From: Deltaproteobacteria bacterium
GTDB lineage: Bacteria; Myxococcota_A; Polyangia; Polyangiales; Houyiibacteriaceae
Reading direction: 5' to 3'
Length of the DNA: 64,000 nt
NCBI GenBank assembly: GCA_034670305.1
Contig: JAXMNT010000022.1
Span: 57,545-121,544 of the forward strand
Shown: piece by piece, positions 19,815 through 64,000 of the stretch
Layout of the letters: every line of letters begins with the position of its first letter
How positions within the stretch are numbered: the first letter of the stretch is position 1
Program-made: the position numbers and the translations under genes
Notes under the pieces: model-generated
Database searches by the model: none
What the model was told of the DNA's origin: nothing
Seen by the model: the letters and a program-made list of their open reading frames with translations, nothing else

Positions 19815-21256
19815 CCGCGGTTCGAGCCACGGCTTCGAACGGCGCATGGCGGCGCGCGTTCGACTGGGCGCCGACCACCCCCGCGCTCCGGCTCGCGATG
19901 TTGCGGGTGATCGTCGGCCTCTACGCGACGGTGTACCTATGCGTTCGGCTGCCGCATCTGTGGAGCTATGCGATCGACGACGTCGCGCGCTTTCAGCCGG
20001 TAGGGCTCGCGACCTTCGCGCCCGCGCCGACCTTGCCCACGCTCTACCAGGTCCTCGTGGTCGCGACGCTGGTCTTCTCGGTGCTGTTCTTGCTCGGCGT
20101 TCGGCACCGCTTCGTCGCACCCGTGTTCGCGGCGCTCCTGCTCTGGGTCCTCACCTACTCGAACTCGTGGGGCAAGATCCTCCACACGGACAACCTGTTG
20201 GTCTGGCACGTGTGGGTGCTCGCGTTCGCACCCGCCGCCGACACTCTCTCGTTCGATGCGCGGGGCAAGCCGCTGCCTGCCGACTCGCGCGACTACGGTT
20301 GGGCGGTTCGCCTGATGGCCGCGTTGACGGTGGCGATCTATCTCTTGGCCGGCATCGCGAAGCTCCGGAACAGCGGGTTCGCGTTCGTCGACGGAGAGAC
20401 GCTTCGAAACTTCGTCGCGTTCGGCAACGTTCGGAAGATCGAACTCGGCAGCCACCACTCGCCGATCGGCGCGTACCTCTCCGCGTTCCCAACCTTCTTC
20501 TCCGTGCTCGCGTGGGGCAGCGTGGTGCTCGAACTCGGCGCGCCCGCAGCGCTCTTGCACCCCCGGCTCGGTCGGTGGTGGTCGTTCGGGGTGTGGGGGT
20601 TCCACGTCGGCGTGGTGGTGCTCATGGCCATCGGCTTCTTCTACCAACTCACCTTCGTCGCCTTCGCGCCGTTCTTCCGCGTGGAGCGACTGCTGGAGCG
20701 GCGCGGCGTGCGGTGGCTGAAGCGGTTCGTGCCGGAAGCCGAAACGCAATCGGAAGCGGAAGCGGAAGCAGAAGCGGAAGCGGAAGCGGACCCGGACGCG
20801 GAAGCGGAAGCGGGTGCGGGAGCGGGAGCGGGAGCGGGAGGGGGAGCGGGAGCGGGAGCGGGTGCGGAAGCGGGAGCGGGAGCGGACGCGGAATCCGAAA
20901 CCGACGCCGAAGCCGAAGCCGAAACCGACGCCGAAACCGACGCCGAAGCCGAAACCGAAACCGAAGCCGAAGCCGAAACCGACGCCGACGCCGAAGCCGA
21001 AGCCGAAGCCGAAACCGAAGCCGAAGCCGAAACCGACGCCGAAACCGACGCCGAAGCCGATGCCGATGCCGAAGCCGATACCGACGCCGATGCCGAAGCC
21101 GACGCCGAAGCCGACGCCGATGCCGAAGCCGCTGCCGAAGCCGATGCCGATGCCGACGCCGACGCCGAAGCCGAAGCCGAAGCCGAAGCCGCTGCCGAAG
21201 CCGTTGTCGAAGCCGATGCCGACGTTTCCGATGTCGGCTCCAGGTCCTCTTCCTAG
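19811..21256 (+). CDS. HTTM-domain (vitamin K-dependent gamma-carboxylase-like) membrane protein with C-terminal acidic low-complexity tail
   Basis: [29 protein letters not shown] and FHVG...MAIGF; the last ~170 aa are (E/D/G)-(A/T) dipeptide repeats. Confidence 0.85.
20735..21223 (+). repeat. Hexamer tandem tract (GAAGCG/GGAGCG/GAAGCC/GAAACC/GACGCC/GATGCC), in frame in the HTTM gene
   Basis: About 490 bp of unbroken 6-bp periodicity with block-wise drift of the unit. Confidence 0.95.
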
Positions 21257-23607
21257 CGGTAGAGGTGGTGCGGGGTCGCGCGTTCTGCGAATGCGGCGCG
21301 TTCGTCTTCGCCGAGGGCGAGGAGAGTTTCCAGGGCGCGTTCGGTGAGTGCTTCGGTGACGCGGGGGTCGCCGACCATTCGGACGAGGCGGTCGGTCTCC
21401 CAGTCGCCCGGGTGGGTGCGGGCGAGGGCGCGCAGGATGGCGAGGCCGAGGACGTTCGGTGTGTAGCGCGCGCCGTCGGTGATGCGGAAGCGGAGGCCGC
21501 GGCAGCGGGCGCGGCGGTGGGGGCGCGCGGTGGGGCGGAACTCGACGACTTCGATCGCGACGCCGGGGACCTCTCCGATCGCGGCGAGGAGCGCGTCGGG
21601 ATCCATCCAGGGCGCGCCGATGACTTCGAAGGGCATGTCGGTCCCGCGTCCGACCGAGACGTTGGTGCTCTCTGCGAGCGCGACCGCTGGGTAGAGCGCG
21701 GTCTGCTCAGGCGTGCGGAGGTTGGGGGAGGGCGGCGTCCAGCGCAGCCCGGTGTCGTCCCAGCGCATCGACCGGTCCCAGCCGACCATCCGAACCACGT
21801 CGAACTGCACGGCGATCGAACGCTCCGCGCGCATGAACGTCGCGAGTTCGCCGAGCGTTAGCCCGTGGGTGAGCGGCAGCGGGTGGTAGTTCACGAAGGA
21901 GCGCACGCTCGGTTGCGACATCGGTCCGAGCACCGCGTCACCGATGGGGTTCGGCCGGTCCAGCAGCACCACCCGCAGATCGTGTTCGGCGGCCGCCTCC
22001 ATCGCGGCGACCGTCGTGCTCGCGTAGGTGTAGAAGCGCGCGCCGACGTCCTGGAGATCGATCGCCAGCACGTCGAGTTCGTCGAGCGCTTCGGGCGGCG
22101 GTCGTCGGGTGGCTCCGAAGAGGGAGTGCACTTGCAACGAACCGAGTGCGCCGTCCGCAACATGGCCTTCCTGGTTGGCGGCCAGCCCGTGCTCCGGCGC
22201 GAAGAGGGCGACGAGGTTCACCTCGGGTGCGCGCTGCAGCACCTGCCAGGTGGGCTGTCCGTCTCCGGTGCGTCCCGCGTCGTTGGTCAACAGGCCGACC
22301 CGCGCGTTCTCGAGCTGCGAGAAGCCGTCGGCGCGCAAGACATCGATGCCGAGCCGGACCGCGTGCGCCGGTGCGGGTCGAGCGCGCGCGACCGCCGAGA
22401 CCGCGCGCCGTCCGACCGCACTTCGAAGCGGCGCCACTTCGCCGCTGCCGTCGGGATGCACCCGGTTGGAGAGCACGATCGCGTAGACCCCGTGGACCGG
22501 ATCGATCCAGAACCAGGTCCCGGTGTAGCCGCCGTGCCCGAACGCGTCGGCGGACCACCCCTCGTGGGTCCGGTCCTCGTGGTCGAGACCCAGCCCTCGC
22601 CCCTCGTGGTCGGCGGTCATCTCGCGCAGCGACGCGGCGTCGAGGATTGGATCGCCGCCACCGAGCATGGCTTCGGCGAACTCCGCCAGATCGTCGGCGG
22701 TCGCGAACAAACCCGCGTGTCCCGCCACGCCGCCGAGCCGCCACGCGCGCGGGTCGTTGACCTCACCGCGGATGATGGGTGGCGGGCTGCCGCGGCGTGG
22801 CGCGCGTTCGGTCGGCGCGATGCGATTGAGGAGCGAGGCGTTCGGACGGAAGCCGGCCGTCATGCCGAGCGGTTCGAACAGGTGCGTGCGCATCAACGCG
22901 TCGAGCGGCTGTCCCGTCGCGACCTCGGCCAAGAGACCGAGCGCGATGAACCCGAGGTCGCTGTAGACGTACGTGCCACGGCGTCCCACGAACGCGCCCC
23001 GCAAGGCGGCGCGCTTCGAGGCTTCGGCATCCTCGGGATCGTAGTCCGAGAGCGGGTTCACGGGCCGGAGCCCGGCCCGGTGGAGCAGCAGATCCCGTGG
23101 GGTGATGCCATGTCCGGCGAGCTCCGGGAGGCGCGCGTCGACGACTTCGTCGAGATCGATCGTGTGTCGTTCGGCGAGCTTCATCACGAGGGCCGCGGTG
23201 AACGTCTTGGTGACCGACGCGAGATCGAAGATCGTGTCTTCGGTCATCCACTCTGGTTGCGGCTCCAGCGCGCGCCGACCGAACGCGCGCCGGAAGACGA
23301 CGCCGTCGCGGTCGCCGAGCACGACCACCGCGCCCGGGATGTGGCCGCGCGCGATCGCGGCTTCGATGTCCGCCACCAGCGCGACCTCGTCTTCGAACCG
23401 AAGGCGCGCGGTCGGCGGCGCCGTGTGGGACGGTGCCAGCACGGGCTCGAGCGCTGCTTCCGAAGATTCGGTCTCGGGTGCGGGGTCGTTTGCCGGCGGG
23501 GGCTCGACCGGCTCGGGTGCGCGGCGGGCCCGACCCGAACACGACGCGCAGCACATGCCGGCCGTGGCCAAGACCACGAGGGTGCGAACAACAAGGCGCG
23601 GCGACAC
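21253..23607 (-). CDS. Lipoprotein fusion: beta-lactamase-like serine hydrolase + exo-beta-N-acetylmuramidase NamZ (DUF1343)
   Basis: DLASVTK (SxxK), [12 protein letters not shown] and FGHGGYTG; then [35 protein letters not shown] and SVGRGT. GTG start at 23607 chosen because the longer ORF runs through a repeat. Confidence 0.9.
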
Positions 23608-23674
23608 CCCTCGATCATGCCGAACAGAACGAGGGCACGCACACTTCCCCGCAACAGCGCCGCACGTACGACGC

Positions 23675-23923
23675 GCCTTGCGCCTTGCCCTTGCCCTTGC
23701 CCTTGCCCTCGCCCTTGCATCTTCGGCGTCGGCATCGGCTTCGGCGTCGGAATCGGCGTCGGCGTCGGAATCGGCTTCGGCGTCGGCGTCGGCTTCGGCT
23801 TCGGCGTCGGCTTCGGATTCGGATTCGGCGTCGGCATCGGCTTCGGCATCGGCTTCGGCTTCGGAACCAAGGGCAAGGGCAAGGGCAAGGGCAGGGGCAA
23901 GGGCAAGGCAGGGCAGGGCAAGG
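23675..23923. repeat. Palindromic hexamer cassette: (CCCTTG)n arm, (TCGGCN/TCGGAN)n core, (CAAGGG)n arm
   Basis: Left arm 23675-23717 and right arm 23868-23923 are reverse complements (~40-bp stem); core 23721-23866; lies between divergent genes. Confidence 0.92.
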
Positions 23924-23957
23924 TGACGGCGGCGTTGGGCTCGTCTACCTTCGGCCC

Positions 23958-25198: not shown

Positions 25199-26592
25199 AG
25201 CACCAACATCCCGTACGGGAAGATCCCGAGCTGCATCGCGACGGCGAGCCCGACGTGAAAGCCCACGCCGAGCAGCAACCAGCCCTCGCGCACCCGCAGC
25301 CAGAGCAGCGCGCGCGACACGCGGCCGAGCGGTTGCCCCCGCGTGCGCTTGCGGCGGGCGAGCAGCGCGAGCCCCATGAACGTGGCGCCGAGTTCGAAGA
25401 CCATCGTGCTGGCGGTGCCGAGCTGCGTGAGCGGATACACGTCGGCGAGCCACGGGAGTTCGAAGCGCGCGAAGTGGGGGTCGTTGAGAATGATGTAGAG
25501 CGCGCTGAAGTCCCCATCCGGCCACCACGGCGACTGCATCTTGTGCAGCCCCGCGGAGAAGTAGATCCACAGCAGCTGGATCACGAGCAGCCGCCGCGGC
25601 CACGCGAGCACGGAGGTTCGTTTCGGGCGCCAGGTCTTGTGACGCCGCCACGCGTCGAACGAGAGGGTCGCGCCGCAATCGCTCAGCGCGAGCAGCACCA
25701 GCGCCGCGCGTAGGGCGACGTCGATCCCGCGGTCCCCCTGCGGCAACATCGCCCCGAGCTGCGCGCTCGCGAGAAGCAGCACCACGGCGGAGCTGCGGGC
25801 GAACACCCCGAACGCCAGCGTGACGCACGAGAGCACCGCCGCGCCAAACACCGCGTACGTGGTCTCGAGTTCGGCGCCGAAAAGCGCATGCGTCCAGATC
25901 GGATCGGGGAACGTGTCCCGGATCCCGAGCGCATGGCTGCTGCTCGGCCCCCACACCGTCCCCACCAGCCCCAGCAGCGCGACGTGCGCAAAATCCGCGA
26001 GCAGCACCAGCGCCACCCCGATCCGCACCCACGCCATCGGCTCCGCCCCCTCCCGCTCCGAACAAAACCCCACCCACCGCGCCCACCGAGACAAGCGGGG
26101 AGCGGCATCGCCTTCGGCATCGGCTTCGGCATCGGCATCGGCATCGGCTTCGGCTTCGGATTCGGATTCGGATTCGGGCTCGGCATCGGCATCGGCATCG
26201 GCATCGGCATCGGCATCGGCATCGGCATCGGCATCGCCGTCGGATCGGGCACGGGCACGGGCACGGGCACGGCCTTCCTCGCCGACGTATTCGGCCGACG
26301 CTGAAGCTGTCTCTGTCTCTGTCTCTGCCTCTGCCTCTGCCTCTGTCTCTGTCTCTGTCTCTGTCTCTGCCTCTGTCTCTGCCTCTGCCTCTGCCTCTGT
26401 CTCCGTCTCTGTCTCTGCCCCTGCCTCTGTCTCTGTCTCTGCCTCTGTCTCTGTCTCTGCCTCTGTCTCTGTCTCTGTCTCTGTCTCTGTCTCTGCCGCT
26501 GTCGCTGCCGCTGCCGCTGTCTCTGTCGCTGCCGCTGCCGCTGCCGCTGCCGCTGCCGCTGTCTCTGCCGCTGCCTCTTCCTCCTCCGTCAC
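25114..26592 (-). CDS. HTTM-domain membrane protein with N-terminal acidic low-complexity extension
   Basis: MAWVRIGV, LSFDA, WPRRLL, YFSAGLHK, FELG and FHVG...LGIFPY; GTG at 26592 overlaps the partner's stop (GTGA). A downstream start at ATG 26037 is possible. Confidence 0.85.
   Translation of the reverse strand: MTEEEEAAAETAAAAAAAAAAATETAAAAATAAETETETETETEAETETEAETETEAGAETETETEAEAEAETEAETETETETEAEAEAETETETASASAEYVGEEGRARARARARSDGDADADADADADADADADAEPESESESEAEADADADAEADAEGDAAPRLSRWARWVGFCSEREGAEPMAWVRIGVALVLLADFAHVALLGLVGTVWGPSSSHALGIRDTFPDPIWTHALFGAELETTYAVFGAAVLSCVTLAFGVFARSSAVVLLLASAQLGAMLPQGDRGIDVALRAALVLLALSDCGATLSFDAWRRHKTWRPKRTSVLAWPRRLLVIQLLWIYFSAGLHKMQSPWWPDGDFSALYIILNDPHFARFELPWLADVYPLTQLGTASTMVFELGATFMGLALLARRKRTRGQPLGRVSRALLWLRVREGWLLLGVGFHVGLAVAMQLGIFPYGMLVLYPAFFSPSEWPPRPLAWLSARRARRRA
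26103..26578. repeat. Composite hexamer tract: (TCGGCA/TCGGAT)n, (GGGCAC)4, (GTCTCT/GCCTCT)n, (GCCGCT)n
   Basis: Visible 6-bp periodicity in four blocks; stop-free in the HTTM frame. Confidence 0.95.
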
Positions 26593-27461: not shown

Positions 27462-30395
27462 ATGTCCGCGCTCACTTCCCTCCTCGTCCGGGACCAACAA
27501 GTCCCGGTCCGCAAGATCGAGGAAGCGATCCAGCGTCAGGTCATTTCCGGCGGTGGCCTGGACACGGTGCTGCTCGAGCTCGCGGCGCTCCCGGAGAACG
27601 TGCTCTCGGCCTACTGCGCGGCGGTGTACGGGCTGCTTCCCGCGACCCGCACCGAGGTCATGAACGTGGCCCGCGACACGATCCGGATCGTGCCGCGCGA
27701 GGTCGCCGAGCGACACAGCCTGGTCCCTCTGGCGATCGAAGAAGGCACGCTCGTCGTCGCGGTCTCCGATCCGCTCGACGACGCCACCGAGTCCCAGCTC
27801 GCGTTCTTGCTCGGAGTCGAGGTCGTCCAGCGGGTGGTGACCGAAGCCCGGCTCGTCGCAGCGCTCCACCACCACTACGGCGTCGAGATGCAGCCCCGTC
27901 TGCGTCGGTTGACCGAGAAGCTGCGCCAGCGCGAACCCGGCGCCATCCCGTTCGTCGCACCGCTCGAGATCAACGTCGCGGAACGCGAAGAAGTCGAAGA
28001 AGAAGACGACGAGTACGAGCACGAAGACACCGACGAGGCGGTCGGTCCCGACACCAAACGGTTCGGGGTGCTCGCGCCGGAAGAGAACGAGACCGTGCGC
28101 ATGAGCGTCTCGCAGGTGGTCGGGGTGCGAAAGAGCAGCCGCCCGCCGCCGCCCCGTCCGAGCGCTGCACCCAAGAAACGAAAAGAACGCCGCCGCATCG
28201 CGCTGCCGCAGAGCCAAGCGTTGCGGAAAAACCGTGGCCCGCTGACGGCGCGCCGCGCGGTCGACGTGCTCGGACAGGCCGAGGTGCGGGACGACATTCT
28301 CGAGGTCGGGTTCGCCTTCGCCAAACAGTTCTTCGACCACACCGCGCTCTTCGTCGTGCACGAGGACGAAGTCGAAGGGCTCGATGCGGTGGGCCCCGGC
28401 GCTTCCCACGAGGCGATGCCGCAGATCTCGCTCTCGCTCTCCGAGCCCTCGTGTTTCGCGCTCGTGGTCGAAGGCGTGGTGCCGCTCATCACGCATCTCG
28501 ATCAAACCGACGTCGAGCGCACCCTGCGCGCCCAGCTGGACCGCAACGGCGCGATGCCCGCGATGCTCGTCCCCGTCGCGATCCGTTCACGCGTCGTCAT
28601 GATCTTCTATGGCGATCGCAACGGCGACGACTTCGGGCTGCAGGATGTGCCGGAGCTCCTGGCGTTCGCGCCGCGGCTGAGCGAAGCGTTTCAGCAGCTC
28701 ATCTTGCGCCGCAAGCTCAGCCCGCCGGTGCCGGAGTCCGCGGCCCCGGAGATCGAGGGCTCGAAAGCGCGCCTCGCGTCCAAGGCCCCGCAGAAAAACA
28801 CCCTTCGCCCGCCCGCGCCCGCGGCCGCCGAAGAGGTCGTTCCGACCAAGCTGCCGATGCCGAGCGTGGCACCGAGTTTCGAGGACGAACCGAGCGCGTT
28901 GGAGGATGCGGTGCGCGGCAGCCTGCACCCGCCGCCCCCGGAAGACGCCATTCCTCTCGAGCCCATCGCCCCGATGGATCCCGAACCGGTGGAGCCGGAG
29001 CACGCAGAGCAACGGCCGAAGAAGCGGCCGATGCCGAAGCCGCGTCGAAAGAAGAAGCGGTCCGCCGCGTTCGAAGTGCTGGGGGTGCCCCGCAGTGCCC
29101 CGCCACCGCCCAAACCCGGCGCGATGCCCGCGGTCGCGGCGCACGGTGCGATCACCATCAGCGACGTCCCTGCGCCATTGGCCGAAGAGGACGACGACGA
29201 GCCGGAGCTCGAGTTCGGCGAAGCGGACGAGTCGGAGTTCGAGGGCATCGAAGAAGAAGAGGCCGGCGTCGGCGGTGCCGGCTCCTACTCGATGGCGGGC
29301 ACCGAGGAGGTGGTGGTGGGCACGCCCCGCTCTTCCCGCCCGCCGATGGCCGATCCCCGCCGCGAAGGCGGCCGCCCCGCGCCACGCACCGAAGTCATCG
29401 CGCCGATCGAAGGCATCACGCCGGCGTCGAGTCCGGCCGCGCGGCGCTCCTCGCCAGGGACCGAGTCTTCGCCGTCTTCGCCGGCGAGCCAAGACCTACC
29501 GAAGGTGATGATCGAGATCGATCCCACCCTGGAGAAGGTCGTGCTTCGGGTGCAAGCGATCGGTCCGGACGATGCGTCCAACGCCATTTCGAACGTGGTG
29601 GCTTCCGGCGAGCCGGCGTTGCCGGTCCTCATCCGAGATTTTCCGGGACCACTGTGGTTCGACCGACACCGTCCGCATCGGCGCTTGCCGCGGGGCCGGG
29701 ACGTGAGCGGGATCTCGCGCACCTTGGTCGCGTTCGGCGACGCGGCGGTTCCCTACGTCGCGACGTTGCTCGACCACCGCGCCATGGACACCCGCTTCTA
29801 CGCGACCTTGCTCGCGTCCGAGTTCGCTCACCCGCACCTGGTCGCGGGGCTCGGCCGCCGCATCTTTGACGAAGACCCGAAGACAGCCGCGCTCGCGCTC
29901 GACGTGCTCCGCGTCCTCTCCCGCTTCGAACGCGAGATGGAAGACGTGATCCAGATGGTTCGCGCCACCGCCCGCGTGCCACGTCGCTCGGCCGATCACC
30001 GCGCCCGCGCCGCCCGCGCGCTCGGCGAACTGCGCGACACCCGGTCCCTCGACCTGTTGGTCGATCTGCTCGCCGCCCACGAAGACATCCTCGTCCAGTC
30101 TGCGCACATCGCGCTCGTCATCCTCACCCGGCAGGACTTCGGCCAAGCCCGCGGCCGCTGGGTCGAGTGGATGGACGCCAACGGCGGCCGACACCGCATC
30201 GAGTGGCTCATCGACGCCCTCCTGCATCCCGACGAAGCGCTTCGCACCGCGGCCGCCGACGAGCTGAAGCACATCACCCAGGAGTACTACGGCTTCCATC
30301 CGAGACTCCCGAAGCACGACCGCGAGATCATGCAGAAGAAGTACCGCCGCTGGTGGGACACCGAAGGCCACCGCCGCTTCAAGATGCCGTCGTAG
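27462..30395 (+). CDS. Multidomain protein: MshEN/GspE-N-like N-terminus, GAF-like domain, Pro/Glu-rich linker, C-terminal HEAT repeats (FrgA-like architecture)
   Basis: IEEAIQRQVISGGGLDTVLLEL...VPREVAERHSLVPL...LVVAVSDP (GspE-N); MLVPVAIRSRVVMIFYGD (GAF); RARAARALGELRD (HEAT). Confidence 0.75.
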   Translation: MSALTSLLVRDQQVPVRKIEEAIQRQVISGGGLDTVLLELAALPENVLSAYCAAVYGLLPATRTEVMNVARDTIRIVPREVAERHSLVPLAIEEGTLVVAVSDPLDDATESQLAFLLGVEVVQRVVTEARLVAALHHHYGVEMQPRLRRLTEKLRQREPGAIPFVAPLEINVAEREEVEEEDDEYEHEDTDEAVGPDTKRFGVLAPEENETVRMSVSQVVGVRKSSRPPPPRPSAAPKKRKERRRIALPQSQALRKNRGPLTARRAVDVLGQAEVRDDILEVGFAFAKQFFDHTALFVVHEDEVEGLDAVGPGASHEAMPQISLSLSEPSCFALVVEGVVPLITHLDQTDVERTLRAQLDRNGAMPAMLVPVAIRSRVVMIFYGDRNGDDFGLQDVPELLAFAPRLSEAFQQLILRRKLSPPVPESAAPEIEGSKARLASKAPQKNTLRPPAPAAAEEVVPTKLPMPSVAPSFEDEPSALEDAVRGSLHPPPPEDAIPLEPIAPMDPEPVEPEHAEQRPKKRPMPKPRRKKKRSAAFEVLGVPRSAPPPPKPGAMPAVAAHGAITISDVPAPLAEEDDDEPELEFGEADESEFEGIEEEEAGVGGAGSYSMAGTEEVVVGTPRSSRPPMADPRREGGRPAPRTEVIAPIEGITPASSPAARRSSPGTESSPSSPASQDLPKVMIEIDPTLEKVVLRVQAIGPDDASNAISNVVASGEPALPVLIRDFPGPLWFDRHRPHRRLPRGRDVSGISRTLVAFGDAAVPYVATLLDHRAMDTRFYATLLASEFAHPHLVAGLGRRIFDEDPKTAALALDVLRVLSRFEREMEDVIQMVRATARVPRRSADHRARAARALGELRDTRSLDLLVDLLAAHEDILVQSAHIALVILTRQDFGQARGRWVEWMDANGGRHRIEWLIDALLHPDEALRTAAADELKHITQEYYGFHPRLPKHDREIMQKKYRRWWDTEGHRRFKMPS

Positions 30396-30442: not shown

Positions 30443-30666
30443 GCTGCCGCTGCCGCTGCCGCTGTCGCTGCCGCTGCCGCTGTCTCTGCCGCTGCAGCTG
30501 CGCTGTCGCTGGCGCTGTAGCTGTCTCCGCCGCCGTCTCTGCCACTGCCGCTGTCGCTGCCGCTGCCGCTGTCTCTGCCGCTGCCGCTGTAGCTGCCGCT
30601 GCCGCTGCCGCTGTCTCCGCCGCCGTCTCTGCCGCCGTCTCTGCCGCTGTCTCTGCCGCTGCCGCT
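30443..30666. repeat. Intergenic hexamer tract (GCCGCT/GTCGCT/GTCTCT)n
   Basis: 6-bp periodicity between convergent genes; shares a 31-mer with 26495-26525. Confidence 0.93.
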
Positions 30667-30670: not shown

Positions 30671-31768
30671 TCAGCTCGGGTCCGTTGGTTCCGCCCGCGT
30701 CGTCGGCGTCGCGATCAAGTCGGTGAGCTCGTCGTCTTGGCGCGGTCGTTCGTCGATGAGCATCTCGCAGTCGTCCTCACCATCCGGCAAGGCGTCGCGA
30801 ACCTCGGCCACCCAGTCTTCCGCCAGAGCGCGCGCGGTAGCGCCGGTCGTTGGACGCTTCTGCGGTTGGAAGCAGCTCACCAGCCATCGGTTGAGTCGGA
30901 CTCGGGCCATCGGCGAGACATCGACGGCACGTCGGGTCTCCCCTTCGACCCAGATGGGCTCGTCAGGTCGCGTGCTCTCGCGATGGCTGGCCGCTTCCGC
31001 TTTCGCGAAGATCTCTTCATAGAGCGCGGCCAGCGCATCGGGAACGAACCCGTCTCCGCCCTCGCTCAGCGGCTGCCACAAGGCGATCACCTGCGGGTTG
31101 ATGCGCTCCTCGCACGCGGCGAGCAGTCGGTCGTGGCCGTCGAGGATCACGTACATCTGCAGGCCCCCGACCCACCAGAGGAGGATGGGTGGAAGCGTGT
31201 TGTCGCGGGCGTGTTTGCGCCACGACTTCACGCGACCGTCGTCCGGCGCGCTTGGCAAACGCAGTGGGAGAACGGCGTCTGACCCGTTGATGCCCCAACT
31301 CTCGTAGTGGAGTCGCGGCAACTGAAGGGACGCCCGCAGGTCATACGCCTCGGGTGGCAGACGGGTCGCCGGCGACGTGAACCGGTCTGGGCCGATGCGC
31401 TGGTGCGGAGGCGGTGGGACGGCGCGCAGTTCGGTGAGCCTCCAGGTCCCGGCCCGCAGCGGCGAGTGCCCGGAGCGGTCCAGAGCGGCCGCGAACCACC
31501 GCATCCACCCATCGGTCCCCCGAATTCGGCGCGCGTCGTCCGCGCGAATCGGATCCACGATGGCGGGGGAGGTGGGTGTCGTGTGGTCGGGCCTCAGGGT
31601 CCACACGCCGTACGTTCCGCGGACGACGTAAGCCCACAGCAGTCGCTGCGCACCGATGGACAAACGCAGGCGCCGCGACCTGGCGCACTCGAGCGTCAGG
31701 CCCGGGGTGCGGCCGACAGGTACGTCTCCCTCGATCCCGCCGTCGTCTTCTGCATCCCGCCAGAACAT
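30671..31768 (-). CDS. Hypothetical protein with ParB/sulfiredoxin-like motif
   Basis: LPPILLW...YVILDGHDRLLAA resembles the ParB/Srx DGxxR signature. Confidence 0.55.
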   Translation of the reverse strand: MFWRDAEDDGGIEGDVPVGRTPGLTLECARSRRLRLSIGAQRLLWAYVVRGTYGVWTLRPDHTTPTSPAIVDPIRADDARRIRGTDGWMRWFAAALDRSGHSPLRAGTWRLTELRAVPPPPHQRIGPDRFTSPATRLPPEAYDLRASLQLPRLHYESWGINGSDAVLPLRLPSAPDDGRVKSWRKHARDNTLPPILLWWVGGLQMYVILDGHDRLLAACEERINPQVIALWQPLSEGGDGFVPDALAALYEEIFAKAEAASHRESTRPDEPIWVEGETRRAVDVSPMARVRLNRWLVSCFQPQKRPTTGATARALAEDWVAEVRDALPDGEDDCEMLIDERPRQDDELTDLIATPTTRAEPTDPS

Positions 31769-33018: not shown

Positions 33019-35100
33019 TTGCCCGGCGGGCGAAAGACACTCGACCTCTTGGCAGAAGAGCGCGAGCAGAAGCGACGGCGCAAGAAGGACCAGCCGTCCT
33101 TCGTCGGCACCACGCTGCAGGGCCGGTACCACCTCGTGCGAAAGCTGGGGGACGGCGGCATGGGGTCCGTCTACAAGGCGGCCGATCAGGTGCTCCGCCG
33201 GTTCGTGGCGATCAAGCTGCTGCATCCGACGACCGCCGAGAACGCCTCTTCGGTCGAACGCTTCGTCCGGGAGGCCCGGAGTGCCGCCGCCATCGGCCAC
33301 CCGAACATCATCGACATCCTCGACTTCGGCTACGAACACAAGCGCCCGTTCCTCGTCATGGAGTACCTCCGCGGCCGCTCCCTCTCGGAGGTGATCGCGG
33401 AAGAGGGGCGTCTGTCGATCGAACGGGCCTGCAAGATCGCCACCCACGCCCTCGCGGGACTCGCCGCCGCGCACGACCGCGGCATCCTGCACCGGGACCT
33501 GAAACCGGCGAACCTGATGTTGATCGCGCTGCTCGGCGATTCGGACTTCGTGAAGCTGTGCGACTTCGGGTTTGCGGCGCTCGTCACGCCGACCAAACGC
33601 ATCGACGGCGGCAAGAACCTCACACCGGCCCGCACCTTGGTCGGCACGCCCGCCTACTGCGCGCCAGAGCGGCTGCGGGGCGACGACCGGCGCGACCCCC
33701 GGCTCGATGTGTACTCGGTCGGCATCGTGCTCTACGAGATGCTCGCGGGTCGTCGGCCTTTCGACGCGCCGACCTTCCGGCAACTCGCGCGCATGATCAA
33801 GAGCGACCCGCCGGCGCGGCTGCGGACCATCCGCCGGGATGTGCCCCGCGCGCTCGAGAAGGTGATCGAGAAGGCGCTCGCGAAAGAGCGGGACAAACGT
33901 TGGGCCACGAGCGCGGACTTCGCTGCGGCCCTCGTCCCGTTCGGTGGACGCGTGGTGCCCAAAGAAGACTTCGCCAGCGACTCGTTCACGATGGACCTGC
34001 TCCGGATCCGGGCGCGGGAGACCCAGCAGCAACGCGTCGTGACGCCGTCGGAGGCGGAGCAGATCCTGGAGCTGCGGGCGAAGGCGCGCCGTGAACGGGA
34101 AGCGGAGCGCAAACGACGCGCGGCGGCGGAGTCGAGTGCGGTCCCCGCGACGGGATCCGACGGCTCGAGTGCGGCGGAGAGTCTGCAGAGCAGCGATCTC
34201 GAAGAACCGACGCCACTCGGCGCGGGCGCCCACATGCCGCTGCTTCCCGACGCCACCGAACGTCAGCTGCCGTTCAGTACGCCGTTCCAAGCGCCGGCCG
34301 TGCCGCCGGTCGCGTCCTCGCTCGTGCCGGCTTCGAAACGTGACCGGCCGTTCGACGCCCGCACCACCGAGGCCGACGCGACCGAGGCCGGCTTGCCCCC
34401 GGTGCCGGTGCTGGACCCGCCGAGCGCACCGGTGGATCCGCCACGCCGTGCGCGGCCGGTGGAGCGCGAACGCGCCATCGAGGACGCGGCGAGCCACTCG
34501 TTTCCCGACCTCGCCGCCGGCGACGACACCGTCATCGACGACCGCTCGTACGCGGGGTCGCTCGGCCTGTCGATCCTCCGGTTCGTCTCGCGGCGGTACG
34601 GCGAACGGGCGTTGACCGAGATGCTCGAGACCCTCCCGGATGTGGCGCGCCACGTCTTCGAACGCGGCATCGGCGACGACGACTGGATCCCGTTCCCCGC
34701 GGTGGATGCGCTCATGCAGACCGTGGATGCGCAGATGGGTCGCGACGATCTGCATCTGGTGGTGCAGTGCGGCCGCGCCGCCTCCGAAGGCGCGTTCGAG
34801 ACGATGCGCAAAGTGCGGCCGCCCGCGCCGCCGCCCGAACTGCTCATCGCCGAGATGCCGACGGTGCTCGCGAAACTCGTGCGCGGCGTGGACGTGCACG
34901 TCGGCCGGATGGGCCGCGGCTACGCGCGCCTGGAGCTCGACGAGTCGGGCGAGAGCAGCCTCACCTTCGGCGTCTTCTTGATCGGGTTTCTCGACCGCAG
35001 CCTCGACCGTTTCGGCGCGTCCGAAGTGGAGGTCAGCCTGATCTCCAGCCCCGCCCTAGGCGACAGCAACTGCGTGTACGAGATCAGCTGGATCGCCTAG
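33019..35100 (+). CDS. Ser/Thr protein kinase with C-terminal putative ligand-binding domain
   Basis: LGDGGMG, VAIK, HRDLKPAN, DFG and GTPAYCAPE; no TM segment; C-terminal ~180-aa domain ending GDSNCVYEISW. Confidence 0.92.
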   Translation: MPGGRKTLDLLAEEREQKRRRKKDQPSFVGTTLQGRYHLVRKLGDGGMGSVYKAADQVLRRFVAIKLLHPTTAENASSVERFVREARSAAAIGHPNIIDILDFGYEHKRPFLVMEYLRGRSLSEVIAEEGRLSIERACKIATHALAGLAAAHDRGILHRDLKPANLMLIALLGDSDFVKLCDFGFAALVTPTKRIDGGKNLTPARTLVGTPAYCAPERLRGDDRRDPRLDVYSVGIVLYEMLAGRRPFDAPTFRQLARMIKSDPPARLRTIRRDVPRALEKVIEKALAKERDKRWATSADFAAALVPFGGRVVPKEDFASDSFTMDLLRIRARETQQQRVVTPSEAEQILELRAKARREREAERKRRAAAESSAVPATGSDGSSAAESLQSSDLEEPTPLGAGAHMPLLPDATERQLPFSTPFQAPAVPPVASSLVPASKRDRPFDARTTEADATEAGLPPVPVLDPPSAPVDPPRRARPVERERAIEDAASHSFPDLAAGDDTVIDDRSYAGSLGLSILRFVSRRYGERALTEMLETLPDVARHVFERGIGDDDWIPFPAVDALMQTVDAQMGRDDLHLVVQCGRAASEGAFETMRKVRPPAPPPELLIAEMPTVLAKLVRGVDVHVGRMGRGYARLELDESGESSLTFGVFLIGFLDRSLDRFGASEVEVSLISSPALGDSNCVYEISWIA

Positions 35101-35174
35101 CCGGGCGCGAAAGCGCCCGGCTACCCTTGCCCGTGCCCTTGCCTTTGCCCGTGCCCTCCCGTGCCCTGCCCCTG
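35097..35174. repeat. Perfect hairpin plus solo (CCCTTG/CCCGTG)n arm between convergent genes
   Basis: TAGCCGGGCGC-GAAA-GCGCCCGGCTA at 35098-35123, then an arm matching the element arm at 45913-45945 at 31/33 positions. Confidence 0.8.
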
Positions 35175-41980: not shown

Positions 41981-42052
41981 CTTCTGCTTCTGCTTCTGCT
42001 TCTGCTTCTGCTTCTGCTTCTGCTTCTGCTTCTGCTTCTGCTTCTGCTTCTG
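41981..42052. repeat. Perfect microsatellite (CTTCTG)12
   Basis: 72 bp, 12 exact copies, intergenic. Confidence 0.97.
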
Positions 42053-42055
42053 CGC

Positions 42056-45866: not shown

Positions 45867-46126
45867 CTAGCAGGCTGCTGAAGAACGCCCGCAGGGCGTT
45901 CTCGCAGCCTGCCCCTTGCCCCTGCCCTTGCCTTTGCCCTTGCCCGCGGATCAGCGGTCAAATCGCTTGATCAGCGCGACGAGCATCGCGACGACGCTTC
46001 GTCCGCTGGGCATCGGGCTCCGATTCGCGGCCTCGCCGTCGCGAAACACACGGCGTCCACGACGCGGGCAAGGGCACGGGCAAGGGCAACGGCAAGGGAG
46101 CAGATCGCTTTTCAGCGACCTGCTAG
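45867..46126. mobile_element. MITE-like element (copy 1) with CTAG boundaries, 14-bp imperfect TIRs and internal hexamer inverted arms
   Basis: CTAG|CAGGCTGCTGAAGA ... TTTTCAGCGACCTG|CTAG; near-identical second copy starts at 63877. Confidence 0.85.
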
Positions 46127-47008
46127 CTCCAGCCAGCGCTGGAGGAACGCCGCGATCGGCTCGAGGGGTCGCGGAGACTCCACCGGGGTCACGCCCCCTT
46201 CGTGGATCACGACCAGCTGGGTGCGCGGTTCGTCTTTGGCGTAGCCGACCGGCCAGAGGGCGGCCCGCATGGCGCCGTGGCGCGGGACCTGCGTCGTGGT
46301 GGTCGGCTTTCCGGTCGCGGAGCTCCGCATCGTGGCGCCCGCCGGCGAGGTCTCGAGCAACCATTCGGTTTGCCAGCCTTGCTGGAAACGGCGGAAGGTC
46401 CCCAGCAAGAGTTCGCGCGGCTCACGAAACAACATCGCCAGCGCGGTGAATGGAAACGCCGCGAGACACAGCGCGCCGAGCGCCACCGCGGCCCACATCG
46501 CCGGCGGGTGTGCGCGTGCTTGCCGCACCGCGGTGCCGTCGCCACTGACTTCGAACCCGGCCGCTTCGAGTTCTTCTCGAGGCACCCGTGCCGGTGCGTC
46601 GCGGTAGCCGCCACGGGATGGCGCAAGCTCGGCGGCGGTCCACGAGACACACAGCGTCTCCTCCCGCCAGAGCTCGAAGACCGCTCCGATGCGGCTGGCG
46701 GCACGCAGGGCGGCGGGGATCACGGCGTTCTCGAACTCGGGCTCGCAGATCGGGTGGTTCTCGAACGAACCGAGCACCCGTTCGCCATCGAGCGCGACCA
46801 CGCGCATGCCCGGGTGTCCTCGTCGTCCGGAGCGCTCGTCTCCAACGGCATCCCCACCGCTGAACTCGTCCACGACGACATCGGCCACATGCCCGAGGGC
46901 GGACCCTGCCGTGTGGCGCCTGAACCGGACCACGCAGATCCGAGTGGCCGCCTCGAGTGCATTCAACGCAGCGCAGATCTCTGTGCGACGGGCGGCATCG
47001 TCTTTCAC
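46112..47008 (-). CDS. Hypothetical membrane protein
   Basis: GGYRDAP motif followed by a TM segment; the stop codon lies inside the element's TIR. Confidence 0.55.
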   Translation of the reverse strand: MKDDAARRTEICAALNALEAATRICVVRFRRHTAGSALGHVADVVVDEFSGGDAVGDERSGRRGHPGMRVVALDGERVLGSFENHPICEPEFENAVIPAALRAASRIGAVFELWREETLCVSWTAAELAPSRGGYRDAPARVPREELEAAGFEVSGDGTAVRQARAHPPAMWAAVALGALCLAAFPFTALAMLFREPRELLLGTFRRFQQGWQTEWLLETSPAGATMRSSATGKPTTTTQVPRHGAMRAALWPVGYAKDEPRTQLVVIHEGGVTPVESPRPLEPIAAFLQRWLELAGR

Positions 47009-59073: not shown

Positions 59074-59091
59074 CCACTCCGCCTCCGGAGC

Positions 59092-60696: not shown

Positions 60697-61052
60697 GTGG
60701 CCTCGGGATCGAGAAAGTCGGCCGCCTGCAGCAGCTCGTACAACGCGCTCGACTGCCCAGCGCTCAGTCCTTCGAACCGAACGCCGAAGCCGCGCGCACG
60801 GCCCGCGGTGCCGTCGCTGACCCATCGAACCTTGCAGGCGATCTCGAGATCATCCCACGCGGTGGGTGAGGCGAACAGGAGTGTGATCGATTGACCCATC
60901 AGGGGGAGGCTGCGCGCATCGATGAACGCGCCACCCATGCCCACATCGACGGTGCTGCCCTCTTGGACCAGCTGTTCTCCCGTTCGGAACCGCACCCGAA
61001 GCGCCATCGGGCGTCGCTCACCACGGCGGAAATGAGGGGAGGGCTCCGTCAT
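60693..61052 (-). CDS. Stand-alone PilZ domain protein
   Basis: RRGERR, DVGMGGAFI, KVRW and GFGVRF. Confidence 0.88.
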   Translation of the reverse strand: MTEPSPHFRRGERRPMALRVRFRTGEQLVQEGSTVDVGMGGAFIDARSLPLMGQSITLLFASPTAWDDLEIACKVRWVSDGTAGRARGFGVRFEGLSAGQSSALYELLQAADFLDPEAT

Positions 61053-61175
61053 TCAGGAGCCGTACAATACTCGATCGGGCGCCGTTGCGCTGCCCCGCAC
61101 ATGGCGGTCTCGGTGCATGGGGTGCGCCGCCACATCGTGCTTGCCTCGACTACGGCCTTCAACGACCCTGGCGGC

Positions 61176-62708
61176 GTGATCCCTCGCCTTGGCTGCGGAC
61201 TCCGGGGTTCGTTCGTGCTGCTCCTGCTGCTGTCCGGCTGGTCGAGTGCTTCCGCACAGAGCCGGAACCTCGACGTGGAGCGTTTCCGGCCGGCCCTCGA
61301 CCACGACGGCTTTCTGGGCATGCAGGGCACCAACATGCCGGGGCCCTGGCGCTGGGACACGGCGCTCTGGCTGAACTACAGCAAGAGTCCGCTGGTCGTC
61401 GTCACGCCCGACGGCGAACGCGGGGTGATCCGGCACCGCTTCGGGGGCGACCTCCAGTTTCAGATCGGGCTCGGGGGACGGATCGCGGTCGCCGCGGATC
61501 TGCCGCTCGTCTTTCACCAGACCACCCGCGCGCGTTTCTTGATGGACGACGGTCCGGCGATCTCTGCGAACGCGTTCGGCGACCCGCGACTGATGTTGCG
61601 GGCGCGCCTCTACGGACGGGACTCGACCGAGCTCAGGGTGCGCAACGAAGGCCCGGGGCTCGCGGTGCTCGCGGGTGTGACCTTGCCGGTCGGCAACGAC
61701 GAGGACTTCGTTGGCGAGGGTCAGGCGACATTCGATCTTCAGCTGACCGCGGACTTCCATGTCTTCGGCGCTGGCGCCGGGATCATGCTCGGCTGGCGCC
61801 ACCGTCCCAACGATCGGTTCGTCGGCACGACGGTGTTTCGTGACGAGCTCTCGTTCGGCATCGCGCTCCGCCTGCCGGTGCCGTGGGTGCCCGGGCTCGG
61901 CGCGATCGTCGAGCTGCGTGGCGCGCTCGATGCCCGCGACCCGTTCTCCCGTGGTCCGCGGACGGCGGTCGAAGGACAGCTCGGCCTGACCTTCCGCTCT
62001 GGCCATGTGAACTACATCGCCGGCACCGGTCTCGGCTTCTCCGCCGGCGTCGGGACGCCCTCGATCCGTGGCCTCTTCGGCGTGCAGTGGTCCCCGCGCG
62101 TCAACGACAAGGACAACGACGGCATCGCGGACGACGACGACGAGTGCCCGCACCTGCCCGAGGACTACGACGACTTCGAAGACGAAGACGGCTGCATGGA
62201 CCCCGACAACGACAACGACTTCGTCCCCGACGTCGACGACCGCTGCCCGAACGAAGAAGCGCTCGAAGGCCAAGACGAAGACGAAGACGGCTGCACCGAC
62301 CCCGCCCCGCCCGCCCCGCCGGTGCAAGAACCGACGACCGAAGAACCGACGACCGAAGAACCGACGACCGAAGAACCGACGACGGACACCGAAGCGCCAG
62401 CAACCGTCGAAGCAGGCACTGGATCGGAGTCGGAATCGGAGTCGGAGTCGGAATCGGGATCGGGATCGGAATCGGAATCGGAATCGGAATCGGAATCGGG
62501 ATCGGGATCGGGATCGGGATCGGGATCGGGATCGGGATCGGGATCGGGATCGGGATCGGGATCGGAATCGGCTTCGGCTTCGGGATCGGCTTCGGAATCG
62601 GCTTCGGAATCGGCTTCGGCTTCAGCTTCGGAATCGGTTTCGGGATCGCATTCAGCCTCGCGTTCGGCCCCGCCACCCCCTCCCTCCCCCAATCGGGGGA
62701 CGCGATGA
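61176..62708 (+). CDS. Outer-membrane beta-barrel protein with thrombospondin type 3 repeats and low-complexity tail (no OmpA C-terminal domain)
   Basis: Signal peptide ASA-Q; ERFRP, FGDPRL and GVGTP..R; DKDNDGIADDDDECP...EDYDDFEDEDGC repeats. Start uncertain. Confidence 0.8.
   Translation: MIPRLGCGLRGSFVLLLLLSGWSSASAQSRNLDVERFRPALDHDGFLGMQGTNMPGPWRWDTALWLNYSKSPLVVVTPDGERGVIRHRFGGDLQFQIGLGGRIAVAADLPLVFHQTTRARFLMDDGPAISANAFGDPRLMLRARLYGRDSTELRVRNEGPGLAVLAGVTLPVGNDEDFVGEGQATFDLQLTADFHVFGAGAGIMLGWRHRPNDRFVGTTVFRDELSFGIALRLPVPWVPGLGAIVELRGALDARDPFSRGPRTAVEGQLGLTFRSGHVNYIAGTGLGFSAGVGTPSIRGLFGVQWSPRVNDKDNDGIADDDDECPHLPEDYDDFEDEDGCMDPDNDNDFVPDVDDRCPNEEALEGQDEDEDGCTDPAPPAPPVQEPTTEEPTTEEPTTEEPTTDTEAPATVEAGTGSESESESESESGSGSESESESESESGSGSGSGSGSGSGSGSGSGSGSESASASGSASESASESASASASESVSGSHSASRSAPPPPPSPNRGTR
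62325..62667 (+). repeat. 15-bp repeat x4 (EEPTT) and hexamer tract (GAATCG/GGATCG/GCTTCG)n, in frame
   Basis: GAAGAACCGACGACC units at 62325-62384; 6-bp periodicity at 62421-62667. Confidence 0.93.
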
Positions 62709-62856
62709 ATCCGCACCCCATCCCCTCCGTCTCTGACACGTTGCTGGGACGAATCTGTGCAGCCGAATGGCCACAGGTGGGTGGAGGGCGTTTGACCTCC
62801 TACATCCTCCTGGGCGTATGCTGTGTCGGGATCCCGTGTCAGGGCGGTAGTGCGGG

Positions 62857-63792
62857 ATGATGCAGATTCGACAATCACCATTCGGAATCTCGGTACTGGC
62901 TTTGGTCACCTTGTTGGTGAGCTTTGCCACGGTGACCGACGGTGCGGCGCAGGACATTCGTGCCCTGTCGCGCGCATTGAGCGGCGCGAGCGATTTTCGC
63001 GTTCGCGTCCAGGCGGCGTTTGCGCTCGGCAACACCCGCAACGCGCGCAACCGGCGTCCCCTCGAGCGCGCCCTCTCCGACGCCAACCCCGCGGTGCGCG
63101 CCGCCGCCGCAACCGCCCTCGGTCGGCTCGGCTCCACCGCAGCGATCGCGGCACTGCGTCGCGCGTCGCGCGACTCGTCTGCATCCGTGCGGATGCAGGC
63201 CCAGCGTTCCATTCGAACCCTTGAAGAGGGCGCGACCCCCACCGCACCCGAAGCGGCACCGCGGCACCGTGCCGCAGGCGGCGGGTTCTACCCCGCGGTG
63301 CAGGTCGTGCCGGAAGCAGGCCGCATTGCATGGCCCCGCGTCCGCTACGCGATCGTACTCGGGAGTATGGCCAACCGCACCACCTTCCGCGGCGCGGACC
63401 GACTCACCAACGTCATGCGTGGCGAAGTGCACTCGACCCTCAACCTGGTCCGTGGCGTCGCGGTCTTCGGCAGCCAGGCCGATCTCGATGCCGCGTCGGC
63501 TGCGCAGATTCGCCGCCGCCGGATTCCGAAGCTCAACCTCGACGGCAGTCTGACCGCCGTGCAACCCCGGCGCGCCCGTGGCGAGCTCTCGGTGCGTTGT
63601 GAGGTGAGCCTGATGTTGCTCGAAGAGGGCAACATCCGCGGCATGCTCAGCGGCGCAGCCACCGGCAGCGAACCACCGCGCCGCAACAACTCCCAGCAGA
63701 CCCAGCGTCTCGCCCAGCAAGCGCTCTCGGCCGCGGTCCGCAGCGCGATGAGCAGCGCCCCAAGCGCCCTGGCCCGCGCCGCCAACCGCTGA
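62857..63792 (+). CDS. Secreted HEAT-repeat protein
   Basis: Signal peptide; DFRVRVQAAFALG, PAVRAAAATALG and SVRMQA. Confidence 0.8.
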   Translation: MMQIRQSPFGISVLALVTLLVSFATVTDGAAQDIRALSRALSGASDFRVRVQAAFALGNTRNARNRRPLERALSDANPAVRAAAATALGRLGSTAAIAALRRASRDSSASVRMQAQRSIRTLEEGATPTAPEAAPRHRAAGGGFYPAVQVVPEAGRIAWPRVRYAIVLGSMANRTTFRGADRLTNVMRGEVHSTLNLVRGVAVFGSQADLDAASAAQIRRRRIPKLNLDGSLTAVQPRRARGELSVRCEVSLMLLEEGNIRGMLSGAATGSEPPRRNNSQQTQRLAQQALSAAVRSAMSSAPSALARAANR

Positions 63793-63876
63793 ACGAACCG
63801 GGCGTCGACTCTCCGGAGTCGGCGACAGGGCTCGGACTCCAGGGACGCGCGTGTGCACGCGACGGCACCGCGACGT

Positions 63877-64000
63877 CTAGCAGGTTGCTGAAGAACGCCC
63901 GCAGGGCGTTCTCGCAGCCTGCCCCTTGCCCCTGCCCTTGCCTTTGCCCTTGCCCGCGGATCAGCGGTCAGATCGCTTGATCAGCGCGACGAGCATCGCG
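63877..64000. mobile_element. MITE-like element (copy 2), truncated by the window end
   Basis: 122 of 124 nt identical to 45867-45990; begins at CTAG. Confidence 0.85.

Follow-up and report, generated by a model that had tools for sequence, protein, structure and literature searches.

Tandem hexamer arrays and their association with PF05635 gene cassettes in a metagenome-derived Polyangiales genome

Results

Hexamer arrays in a 64-kb window and across the genome

The DNA described here, hereafter called the window, is a 64-kb stretch (positions 57,545 to 121,544 of contig JAXMNT010000022.1) of a 7.93-Mb, 105-contig genome with 68% G+C from a bacterium of the order Polyangiales. The assembly (GCA_034670305.1) is metagenome-derived, and the genome is rated 96% complete. 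The window carries a series of tandem arrays of six-base units, as well as two copies of a small cassette that has such arrays as its arms and contains a decayed gene of the four-helix-bundle family PF05635. An earlier note on this DNA had proposed that a set of period-6 tracts, drawn from a few related units and located at gene ends or junctions, belongs to one dispersed repeat system. Tandem repeats were called with Tandem Repeats Finder (TRF), which reports a period-6 array at every tract listed in that note. Fifteen period-6 rows were obtained for the window, compared with zero in 20 of 20 dinucleotide-preserving shuffles when a TRF score of at least 50 was used as the threshold for this chance control.

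A compound array at 20733-21222 (plus strand) comprises approximately 26 units of GCGGAA/GCGGGA followed by approximately 55 units of the GCCGAA type, which is TCGGNN reversed, and appears in TRF as two overlapping rows of ~76 and ~55 copies. Convergent genes flank it, and open reading frame (ORF) 19811-21256 runs through it in frame, which gives a tail of approximately 170 residues (Glu-Ala, Gly-Ala and Asp-Ala). At 23676-23923 (plus strand), a gene-less triple array in a divergent intergenic gap consists of (CCTTGC)x7, (CTTCGG)x24 and (CAAGGG)x10 (TRF rows 23676-23718, 23721-23864 and 23868-23923), such that a TCGGNN core lies between inverted CCCTTG/CAAGGG arms. When folded as single-stranded DNA, this tract yields -81.6 kcal/mol (z = -6.2), and none of 200 shuffles is equally stable. 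The array at 26103-26272 (plus strand), with (CGGCAT)x24.5 followed by (CGGGCA)x4.5, represents the commonest composite of the genome, a TCGGNN array with a CAMGGG array on its 3' side. Approximately 38 units of GGATCG, GGAATC and GGCTTC, also of the TCGGNN type, form the array at 62421-62648 (plus strand), which supplies ORF 61101-62708 with an in-frame Gly-Ser/Glu-Ser/Ala-Ser tail.

Arrays of other units lie between these sites. At 26307-26578 (plus strand), CTGTCT/CTGCCT units give way to GCTGCC/GCTGTC units (~45 in all, with an 18-base super-period). Approximately 37 GCTGCC/GCTGTC units at 30443-30666 (plus strand) occupy the convergent gap from the stop of ORF 27462-30395 (plus strand) to ORF 30671-31768 (minus strand). 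A solitary CCCTTG/CCCGTG arm of ~9 units lies in a convergent gap at 35124-35174 (plus strand), preceded by a short G+C-rich hairpin that abuts the stop of ORF 33019-35100; its likeness to a cassette arm is confined to the array itself (33 bases). The array at 41981-42053 (plus strand), flanked by two minus-strand genes, is (CTTCTG)x12.2 with 100% matches, and its unit is one base away from GCTTCG/GCTTCC. A perfect 21-base direct repeat (2.0 copies) was also observed at 42840-42880, within minus-strand ORF 42056-42994. The stop-free reading of the tracts would be expected from the unit sequences, though TAG-bearing units occur in the 30443 tract.

Genome-wide, TRF assigns period 6 to 1218 of 2832 tandem-repeat clusters and to 147,712 of 290,728 repeat bases. 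Other short periods are rare (one cluster of period 4, eight of period 7 and five of period 8, with none listed for period 5), and multiples of three recur in 300 (period 12), 333 (15), 226 (18) and 244 (21) clusters. After merging, 1158 period-6 tracts span 145 kb of the genome. By a home-made codon-usage gene caller, they make up 121,881 of 1,025,044 non-coding bases (~12%), and at least 18 bases of tract are present in 667 of 4785 intergenic gaps, about one in seven. The main unit family is TCGGNN (TCGGCT 29%, TCGGCG 11.7%, TCGGCA 9.7% and TCGGAT 4.1% among 17,795 units). The remaining main families are CCCTTG/CCCGTG, GCTTCC, GCTGCC/GCTGTC and CTTCTG, and several families are separated by a one-base difference. 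Perfect runs of at least eight units number 131. These results bear out the earlier claims that a few related units are common to the sites, since the same families are recovered genome-wide, and that units switch from block to block and occur in both orientations, as is seen in the genome-wide block order. Unique flanks of the window arrays were matched on both sides, in the same order and with zero differences, by Logan contigs of four runs from one study; no RNA run was found to contain this stretch.

The type 1 cassette

Both cassette copies in the window belong to a group designated type 1. An internally deleted copy at 45867-46128 (minus strand) is laid out as CTAG, an outer hairpin, (CCCTTG)x5 (45913-45945), a remnant of the ends of a four-helix-bundle gene, (CAAGGG)x5 (46066-46098), a second hairpin and CTAG. 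The segment 45864-46130 that holds it folds into a long hairpin (-101.3 kcal/mol, z = -10.0). Of the second copy, at 63877-64000 (minus strand), one end is present before the window edge cuts the rest; it comprises CTAG, the outer hairpin, (CCCTTG)x5 at 63923-63955 and the start of the interior, and matches the query cassette copy over 90 bases at 100% identity.

The same build, from the outside inwards, is exhibited by 26 copies that have both arms on one contig. Their termini, hairpins and arm arrays are common and are identical even in the order of variant units, whereas their interiors vary from 97 to 615 bases through internal deletions that differ by copy. Exactly five units are present in 331 of 507 CCCTTG arrays, with two variant orders seen 119 and 120 times, and the copy number of type 1 is ~130 or more, mostly decayed. 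The longest interiors code for the C-terminal three quarters of a four-helix-bundle protein (PF05635/TIGR02436). For example, the copy at L001:141-635 (minus strand) matches PF05635 with 64.9 bits (cut-off 33.8) and TIGR02436 with 70.1 bits (cut-off 24).

Among 150 type 1 termini genome-wide, 138 follow a TAG, which in 124 cases is part of CTAG. In 78 of the 138, a coding-like ORF running towards the element uses this TAG as its in-frame stop. Type 1 termini therefore often supply the stops of neighbouring genes, which places the cassette exactly at gene ends. Since 133 of the 507 CCCTTG arrays lie no more than 90 bases from a contig end, the type 1 cassette is also a main cause of assembly breaks. 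No type 1 end pairs in correct orientation and more than 700 bases apart were found, and many copies sit at contig ends.

Some type 1 interiors contain nested inserts, namely a palindrome of ~25-35 bases and two longer modules, all with ATAT-like junctions, and several stand in a row in some copies (for example, at C1:174491-174833 and C9:103648-104323). By their sequences, these inserts look like a second family of tiny insertion elements.

PF05635 genes and cassette types 2 to 4

The genome holds 47 PF05635 matches, of which 39 exceed the cut-off. A hexamer block is present within 350 bases upstream of 32 of 45 of these matches, compared with 524 of 5813 genes overall, and within 120 bases downstream of 19 of 43, compared with 830 of 5813. 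Besides type 1, three cassette groups carry intact genes. In each group, the gene follows a conserved, structured leader of ~170-270 bases and its stop codon precedes a hairpin; blastn yields only ~15-35 copies per group.

In type 2, GCTTCC arrays lie upstream in 7 of 9 loci, and GCTTCC or GCTGCC-type arrays lie downstream in 7 of 9, beginning 44-58 bases past the gene. In type 3, GRCAGC is found upstream and TCGGNN downstream (at ~+40), each in 11 of 13 loci. In type 4, GCCGAA (TCGGNN reversed) is found upstream in 10 of 12, ending ~270 bases ahead of the gene; the reverse of the common TCGGNN-CAMGGG composite stands before one type 4 gene (contig C67). Thus there are at least four cassette subfamilies, each with a characteristic hexamer unit that keeps a fixed spacing from the gene. 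At a pS of ~0.36, type 2 has a ratio of nonsynonymous to synonymous differences per site (pN/pS) of 0.13 and type 4 one of 0.05, which indicates that the genes of both subfamilies are under purifying selection.

The leaders of types 2 to 4 (for example, those of L004, L005 and L007) have a common outline, with long-range complementary segments and small GGCC-loop-GGCC hairpins. An Rfam search of cassette leaders from five loci (E no greater than 1) yielded no relevant match, with only a sub-threshold match to isrG and one to a microRNA.

Position of the arrays relative to genes

Placement at gene ends and junctions, as the earlier note had described it, is borne out with the home-made codon-usage gene caller used here. 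By gap type, TCGGNN arrays occupy 186 of 932 (convergent), 56 of 964 (divergent) and 248 of 3812 (tandem). The distance from array to stop codon, taken in 620 cases, is no more than 15 bases in 89 and 16-40 bases in 158. Arrays in tandem gaps point the same way as the genes in 149 cases and against them in 99.

Approximately 12% of tracts overlap called genes (85 internally, 29 at the C-terminus and 30 at the N-terminus, of 1158). The TCGGNN arrays within genes are antisense in 86 cases and sense in 21, and translated arrays read mostly as Glu/Asp-Ala, Ala/Asp-Ser, Gly-Ser or Glu-Thr. Arrays in genes are therefore read almost only in harmless frames, promoter-side gaps are avoided and positions after stop codons are favoured.

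Comparison with a relative from another genus

Forty relatives were compared. The TCGGCN pattern is matched 4799 times in this genome, 351 times in a relative designated G012 and no more than 21 times in any of the remaining relatives. G012 has a 9.07-Mb single-contig genome and belongs to the same family as the bacterium studied here, in another genus, so that the comparison is made at 50-60% protein identity. Its count of 31 PF05635 genes is the second-highest among the 40 relatives, and period-6 arrays lie within 700 bases of 21 of 23 of its PF05635 loci. At one of these, (GCCGAA)n, a leader, the gene, a hairpin and (TCGGCN)n follow one another, with junction motifs that are matching and inverted.

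An 18-kb stretch of G012 is syntenic with window positions 18.4-35.1 kb and has the same gene order, but no period-6 arrays were found in it. It contains no counterpart of the tract at 23676-23923, and neither the array at 30443-30666 nor the minus-strand gene 30671-31768 was detected there. In G012, the orthologue of ORF 19811-21256 extends little beyond the conserved membrane domain and overlaps its convergent neighbour, whereas the same junction in the window holds a 490-base array between the convergent genes. This agrees with the proposal that the tracts generate new low-complexity protein ends, given that the predicted 170-residue tail is absent from the orthologue of the related genus. 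Because the G012 genes overlap at the 20733 site, there is no spacer from which an array could have grown. Judged from these sequences, arrays appear to arrive rather than to develop from local sequence.

The C-terminus of ORF 61101-62708 is built from TCGGNN units (Gly-Ser/Glu-Ser), whereas its G012 orthologue carries ACTGAG units (Glu-Thr), and ACTGAG is the unit of a second group of G012 cassette arms. That orthologous tails carry the cassette units of their own genomes suggests a genome-specific dispersing process rather than an inherited local repeat. Each genome would thus write its own cassette-type units at gene ends. Ahead of the hexamer tail of the same ORF, a perfect 15-base repeat (62326-62383, 3.9 copies) encodes Glu-Pro-Thr-Thr-Glu repeats, and the G012 orthologue has a shorter, non-identical Pro/Thr/Glu stretch at this place.

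Block order and growth of the arrays

Blocks of different units are arranged in a polar manner. Among 614 TCGGNN arrays, a CAMGGG neighbour lies downstream in 151 cases and upstream in 29. GCTTCC is likewise found mostly downstream (51, compared with 3 upstream), whereas GGAAGC (27 upstream, 3 downstream) and CCCKTG (26 upstream, 1 downstream) precede the TCGGNN array. The composite of TCGGNN followed by CAMGGG (bigram 'Ac') occurs 101 times, and its non-inverted counterpart ('AC') does not occur. Close inverted TCGGNN pairs that might enclose genes were rejected as a feature of the system, in that 105 neighbouring pairs within 2 kb include no opposed pair less than 387 bases apart.

A junction box between arrays is present in 12 exact copies genome-wide (for example, at C3:84231 and C70:19625). 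These 14 bases, which combine a Shine-Dalgarno-like AGGAG with ATG, sit between (GCCGAA)n(TCCGAA)3 and, mostly, (CGTGCC)n (~5 units where complete). If translated, the box would begin a peptide of Arg-Ala repeats.

Within the TCGGNN unit, four positions are constant and two are variable, and changes to the core instead form separate blocks. Such a fixed four-position core is not predicted by neutral decay. Each locus has its own order of variant units, with ten 12-unit words common to loci compared with 2.1 expected from shuffles, which implies that most TCGGNN array length arose in place. Copying of whole arrays between loci was rejected, given that the shuffle maximum of 12 such words exceeds the ten observed. 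Unit identity at lag 1 is 0.349, compared with 0.353 after shuffling, whereas lag 2 (0.441), lag 4 (0.389) and lag 6 (0.370) exceed the shuffled value of ~0.35. This pattern fits growth in place by steps of two units (12 bases) and does not fit copying between loci.

As RNA, the commonest unit reads CUUCGG (for example, at 23721-23864), and GCGGAAGC holds GGAA between G-C pairs (for example, at 20733-20890). We take the former to be a UUCG tetraloop with its closing C-G pair and the GGAA in GCGGAAGC to be a GNRA-type loop. Two units could form a mini-hairpin plus linker of 12 bases, which matches the super-period.

Candidate machinery and host factors

Three genes match the reverse-transcriptase model RVT_1, with the nearest hexamer block 382 bases to 13.6 kb away. 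None of the three adjoins a PF05635 gene, and the closest pair (on contig C67) is ~5 kb apart. Eleven genes match Y1_Tnp, the model that covers transposases associated with repetitive extragenic palindromes (REP-associated tyrosine transposases, or RAYTs); for these, the distance to the nearest hexamer block ranges from 272 bases to 45 kb, and the flanks are unrelated. With no linkage of the three and 11 genes to arrays, both reverse transcriptase and RAYT were rejected as the mobiliser. The 11 Y1-transposase-like genes have open frames of ~235-249 residues (for example, C68:18551-18841 and C1:180072-180362), and two inspected copies exhibit flanks that are conserved and partly inverted on both sides. 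By sequence they look like a separate multi-copy element that is not linked to the hexamer arrays.

Loss of mismatch repair was likewise rejected as the cause of the array load, as neither mutS (884 bits) nor mutL (416 bits) is missing or interrupted by a stop. No match to the model of the Rho termination factor exceeds the cut-off in this genome (best 69 bits, cut-off 509; 96% complete).

Discussion

Arrays as proposed arms of selfish cassettes

We consider it moderately probable that the tracts are the repeat arms, mostly gene-less or orphaned, of small selfish cassettes built around a PF05635/TIGR02436 four-helix-bundle gene. Short arm arrays would reach new sites with the cassettes, or through their machinery, and would then lengthen in place by replication slippage or unequal exchange, mainly in two-unit (12-base) steps. 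In this lineage, arrays may have multiplied and lengthened far past the usual five or so units. Deletion of cassette interiors would leave solitary arrays behind, and selection would purge arrays that land where they are harmful.

The polar block grammar supports the view of the earlier note that the tracts are not products of unrelated slippage; they form a single genome-wide family. Its suggestion that a mobile element seeded them holds for the type 1 arms at 45912/46065 and 63922, and agrees with the possession of particular unit types by each cassette subfamily, but most arrays stand without a cassette. Its alternative of an addition mechanism found no support, as there is no sign of an addition enzyme and the three reverse-transcriptase and 11 Y1-transposase-like genes lie away from arrays. 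Nor do TCGGNN arrays appear to be copies of one another, given their locus-specific unit order (10 shared words versus 2.1). Listing genes enriched between inverted tracts proved unproductive, TCGGNN arrays being mostly solitary.

Several observations weigh against the cassette-arm reading. TCGGNN arrays (~640) outnumber type 3 and type 4 copies together (~45) roughly ten to one, and most arrays have no recognisable cassette beside them. A blastn search of the window with the cassettes recovers only the two type 1 copies and no cassette remnant at any TCGGNN array. Independent spread of arrays, or cassettes that seek arrays, would fit this excess equally well. At type 2 cassettes, the two flanks share one unit in direct orientation, as expected from insertion into an existing array; cassettes may either carry arrays or seek them. 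No transposase, integrase or autonomous copy was found. The palindromic CTAG may be either the end of the type 1 element or a duplicated target, the two being indistinguishable. The absence of a lag-1 excess is unusual for simple slippage. Other points concern the data themselves: the Logan contigs stop at array borders and never bridge them, so that array interiors and lengths are those given by the assembly, and 133 of the 507 CCCTTG arrays lie close to a contig end (within 90 bases). Counts of array positions are approximate because the gene map comes from a home-made caller, and none of the 40 relatives belongs to the same genus, so that empty sites are seen across genera only.

Alternative explanations

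A possible, if somewhat unlikely, alternative is that the arrays are ordinary microsatellites, produced by slippage and recombination in a tolerant lineage, and that cassettes prefer to insert in or next to arrays already there, each subfamily choosing its own target. The locus-specific unit order is as this account would have it, as are arrays that are perfect and probably young, such as (CTTCTG)x12 at 41981 and the 131 perfect runs of at least eight units. It also accommodates the large excess of arrays over cassettes and the direct flanks of a single unit at type 2 and at some type 4 cassettes. However, microsatellites would not be expected to follow a polar block order or to share conserved junction boxes, to occur at sites where the relative has no spacer, or to carry genome-specific units at an orthologous site. 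Uninterrupted mutS and mutL leave no obvious repair defect behind the load, and the four fixed and two variable positions of TCGGNN are not what neutral decay predicts.

It is also conceivable, though we think it quite doubtful, that the arrays are functional, either as docking sites for the cassette four-helix-bundle proteins or as structured 3' ends that terminate or protect transcripts, such that selection rather than selfish spread explains their number and position. The conserved unit core with two variable positions, the 12-base super-period and the enrichment after stops and in convergent gaps (89 of 620 distances within 15 bases) would all be explained in this way. So would the orientation bias in tandem gaps (149 versus 99), the long hairpins formed by CCCTTG/CAAGGG arms, the lack of a Rho factor over the family cut-off, and cassette proteins that are under purifying selection and have their own unit in each subfamily. 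Yet the syntenic G012 genes manage without arrays, neither the lengths of arrays nor the order of their units is conserved, the bias in orientation is weak, and tolerated junk would also be enriched in convergent gaps.

An origin of the arrays in mis-joins or in collapsed or expanded repeats of the metagenome-derived assembly would suit the halt of Logan contigs from four runs exactly at array borders and the 133 of 507 CCCTTG arrays within 90 bases of a contig end, but it is very improbable: the unique flanks are confirmed on both sides in the same order without differences, the complex locus-specific variant orders could not be created by collapse, similar arrays flank the same gene family in the single-contig genome of G012, and the arrays follow rules of gene frame and gene end. 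Equally improbable is templated addition, in which a reverse transcriptase or other polymerase would append hexamers singly at gene ends in the manner of telomerase. The PF05635 family also includes Avd, which serves diversity-generating retroelements as an accessory protein, and the chance-level likeness of adjacent units (lag-1 0.349 versus 0.353) is what unit addition from a loose template would give. However, the nearest hexamer blocks are 382 bases to 13.6 kb away from the three reverse-transcriptase genes, none of which is beside a PF05635 gene, and the excess at lags 2, 4 and 6 is better explained by duplication of two-unit blocks than by adding units one at a time.

A bolder form of the cassette-arm reading, which we regard as unlikely, is that each four-helix-bundle subfamily recognises its own hexamer 'word' and that the arrays are docking tracks. 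The cassettes would then constitute a self-propagating protein-DNA or protein-RNA system that homes to stop codons, seeds arrays that grow in 12-base steps, and writes acidic or Ser-rich tails onto host proteins as a by-product.

Implications and relation to known systems

Dispersed short tandem repeats of bacterial genomes have long been known without a source. PF05635 is widespread but, to our knowledge, has been given a role only in retroelement accessory proteins. In this genome and its complete relative, the two are tied together through fixed distances and subfamily-specific units, and the outcome here is extreme, with arrays amounting to ~12% of non-coding DNA, cassette ends that serve as stop codons and repeats that are read into proteins. 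Were the docking-track idea true, a large family without a function would gain a role, and one mechanism might lie behind the dispersed short tandem repeats of several bacterial phyla. Questions that become testable include the target of the protein, the movement of the cassette, effects on transcript ends in a genome without a detected Rho, and the pace at which repeat-derived tails originate. In practical terms, arrays and cassettes are a main source of assembly breaks in this genome.

The literature covered, which largely leaves out subscription journals and includes passages of a review (PMC8538405), contains no account of myxobacterial hexamer arrays or of tandem-repeat arms around PF05635 genes, and no paper that joins 'short tandemly repeated repetitive' with 'four helix bundle'.

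Among known systems, intervening sequences (IVSs) of 23S rRNA genes offer one comparison. One report describes the Coxiella IVS as a 428-nt selfish element that carries an S23p-type ORF (PMC4990558). Like the ORF-bearing IVSs of Coxiella and Leptospira (S23p, PF05635), the type 1 cassette has a gene of the same family inside complementary arms that form a long stem. Complementary flanks of this kind are confined to type 1, the two flanks of types 2 to 4 not being complementary arrays. In contrast to the location of IVSs in 23S rRNA, the copies examined here, those at 45867-46128 and 63877-64000 among them, all lie between or adjoin protein-coding ORFs. Their arms are hexamer arrays of up to hundreds of bases, and there are four subfamilies and far above a hundred copies, with most arrays gene-less.

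Type 1 also resembles miniature inverted-repeat transposable elements (MITEs) in being short, non-autonomous and internally deleted, in its terminal inverted repeats, and in its more than 100 assembly-breaking copies. Composite MITE/minisatellite elements such as BrickBuilt of Porphyromonas gingivalis have a similar build of leader, tandem repeat and tail. Unlike MITEs, the cassettes have no parent transposase found here, their cargo is a four-helix-bundle gene, and their CTAG ends double as the stops of neighbouring genes (78/138). REP elements and bacterial interspersed mosaic elements, together with their RAYTs, share the high copy number, the placement after genes and in convergent gaps, and the hairpin potential. 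They are single palindromes, whereas the repeats here are tandem hexamers, and the 11 Y1-transposase-like genes do not adjoin arrays. From diversity-generating retroelements (Avd plus reverse transcriptase), the present system differs in having no four-helix-bundle gene adjacent to a reverse transcriptase.

Dispersed non-coding tandem arrays, in which one short unit family likewise occupies many intergenic sites of a genome, are also formed by the heptamers of Xanthomonas and by those of heterocyst-forming cyanobacteria, the latter termed short tandemly repeated repetitive (STRR) sequences. Unlike STRR sequences, the arrays described here have a period of 6 rather than 7 (1218 versus 8 of 2832 clusters), are compounded of polar blocks and are tied to PF05635 cassettes. 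Slippage microsatellites and variable-number tandem repeats are similar in their head-to-tail short variant units, in the occurrence of some perfect arrays and in their in-frame genic repeats. They differ from the system in this genome, in which ~1158 tracts covering 12% of non-coding DNA are drawn from one genome-wide unit family with a polar grammar, a link to cassettes and no lag-1 excess. What is new here, relative to these systems, is the scale of the array load, the subfamily-specific arm units, the coincidence of CTAG ends with stop codons, the 12-base super-period and the bias in translated frames.

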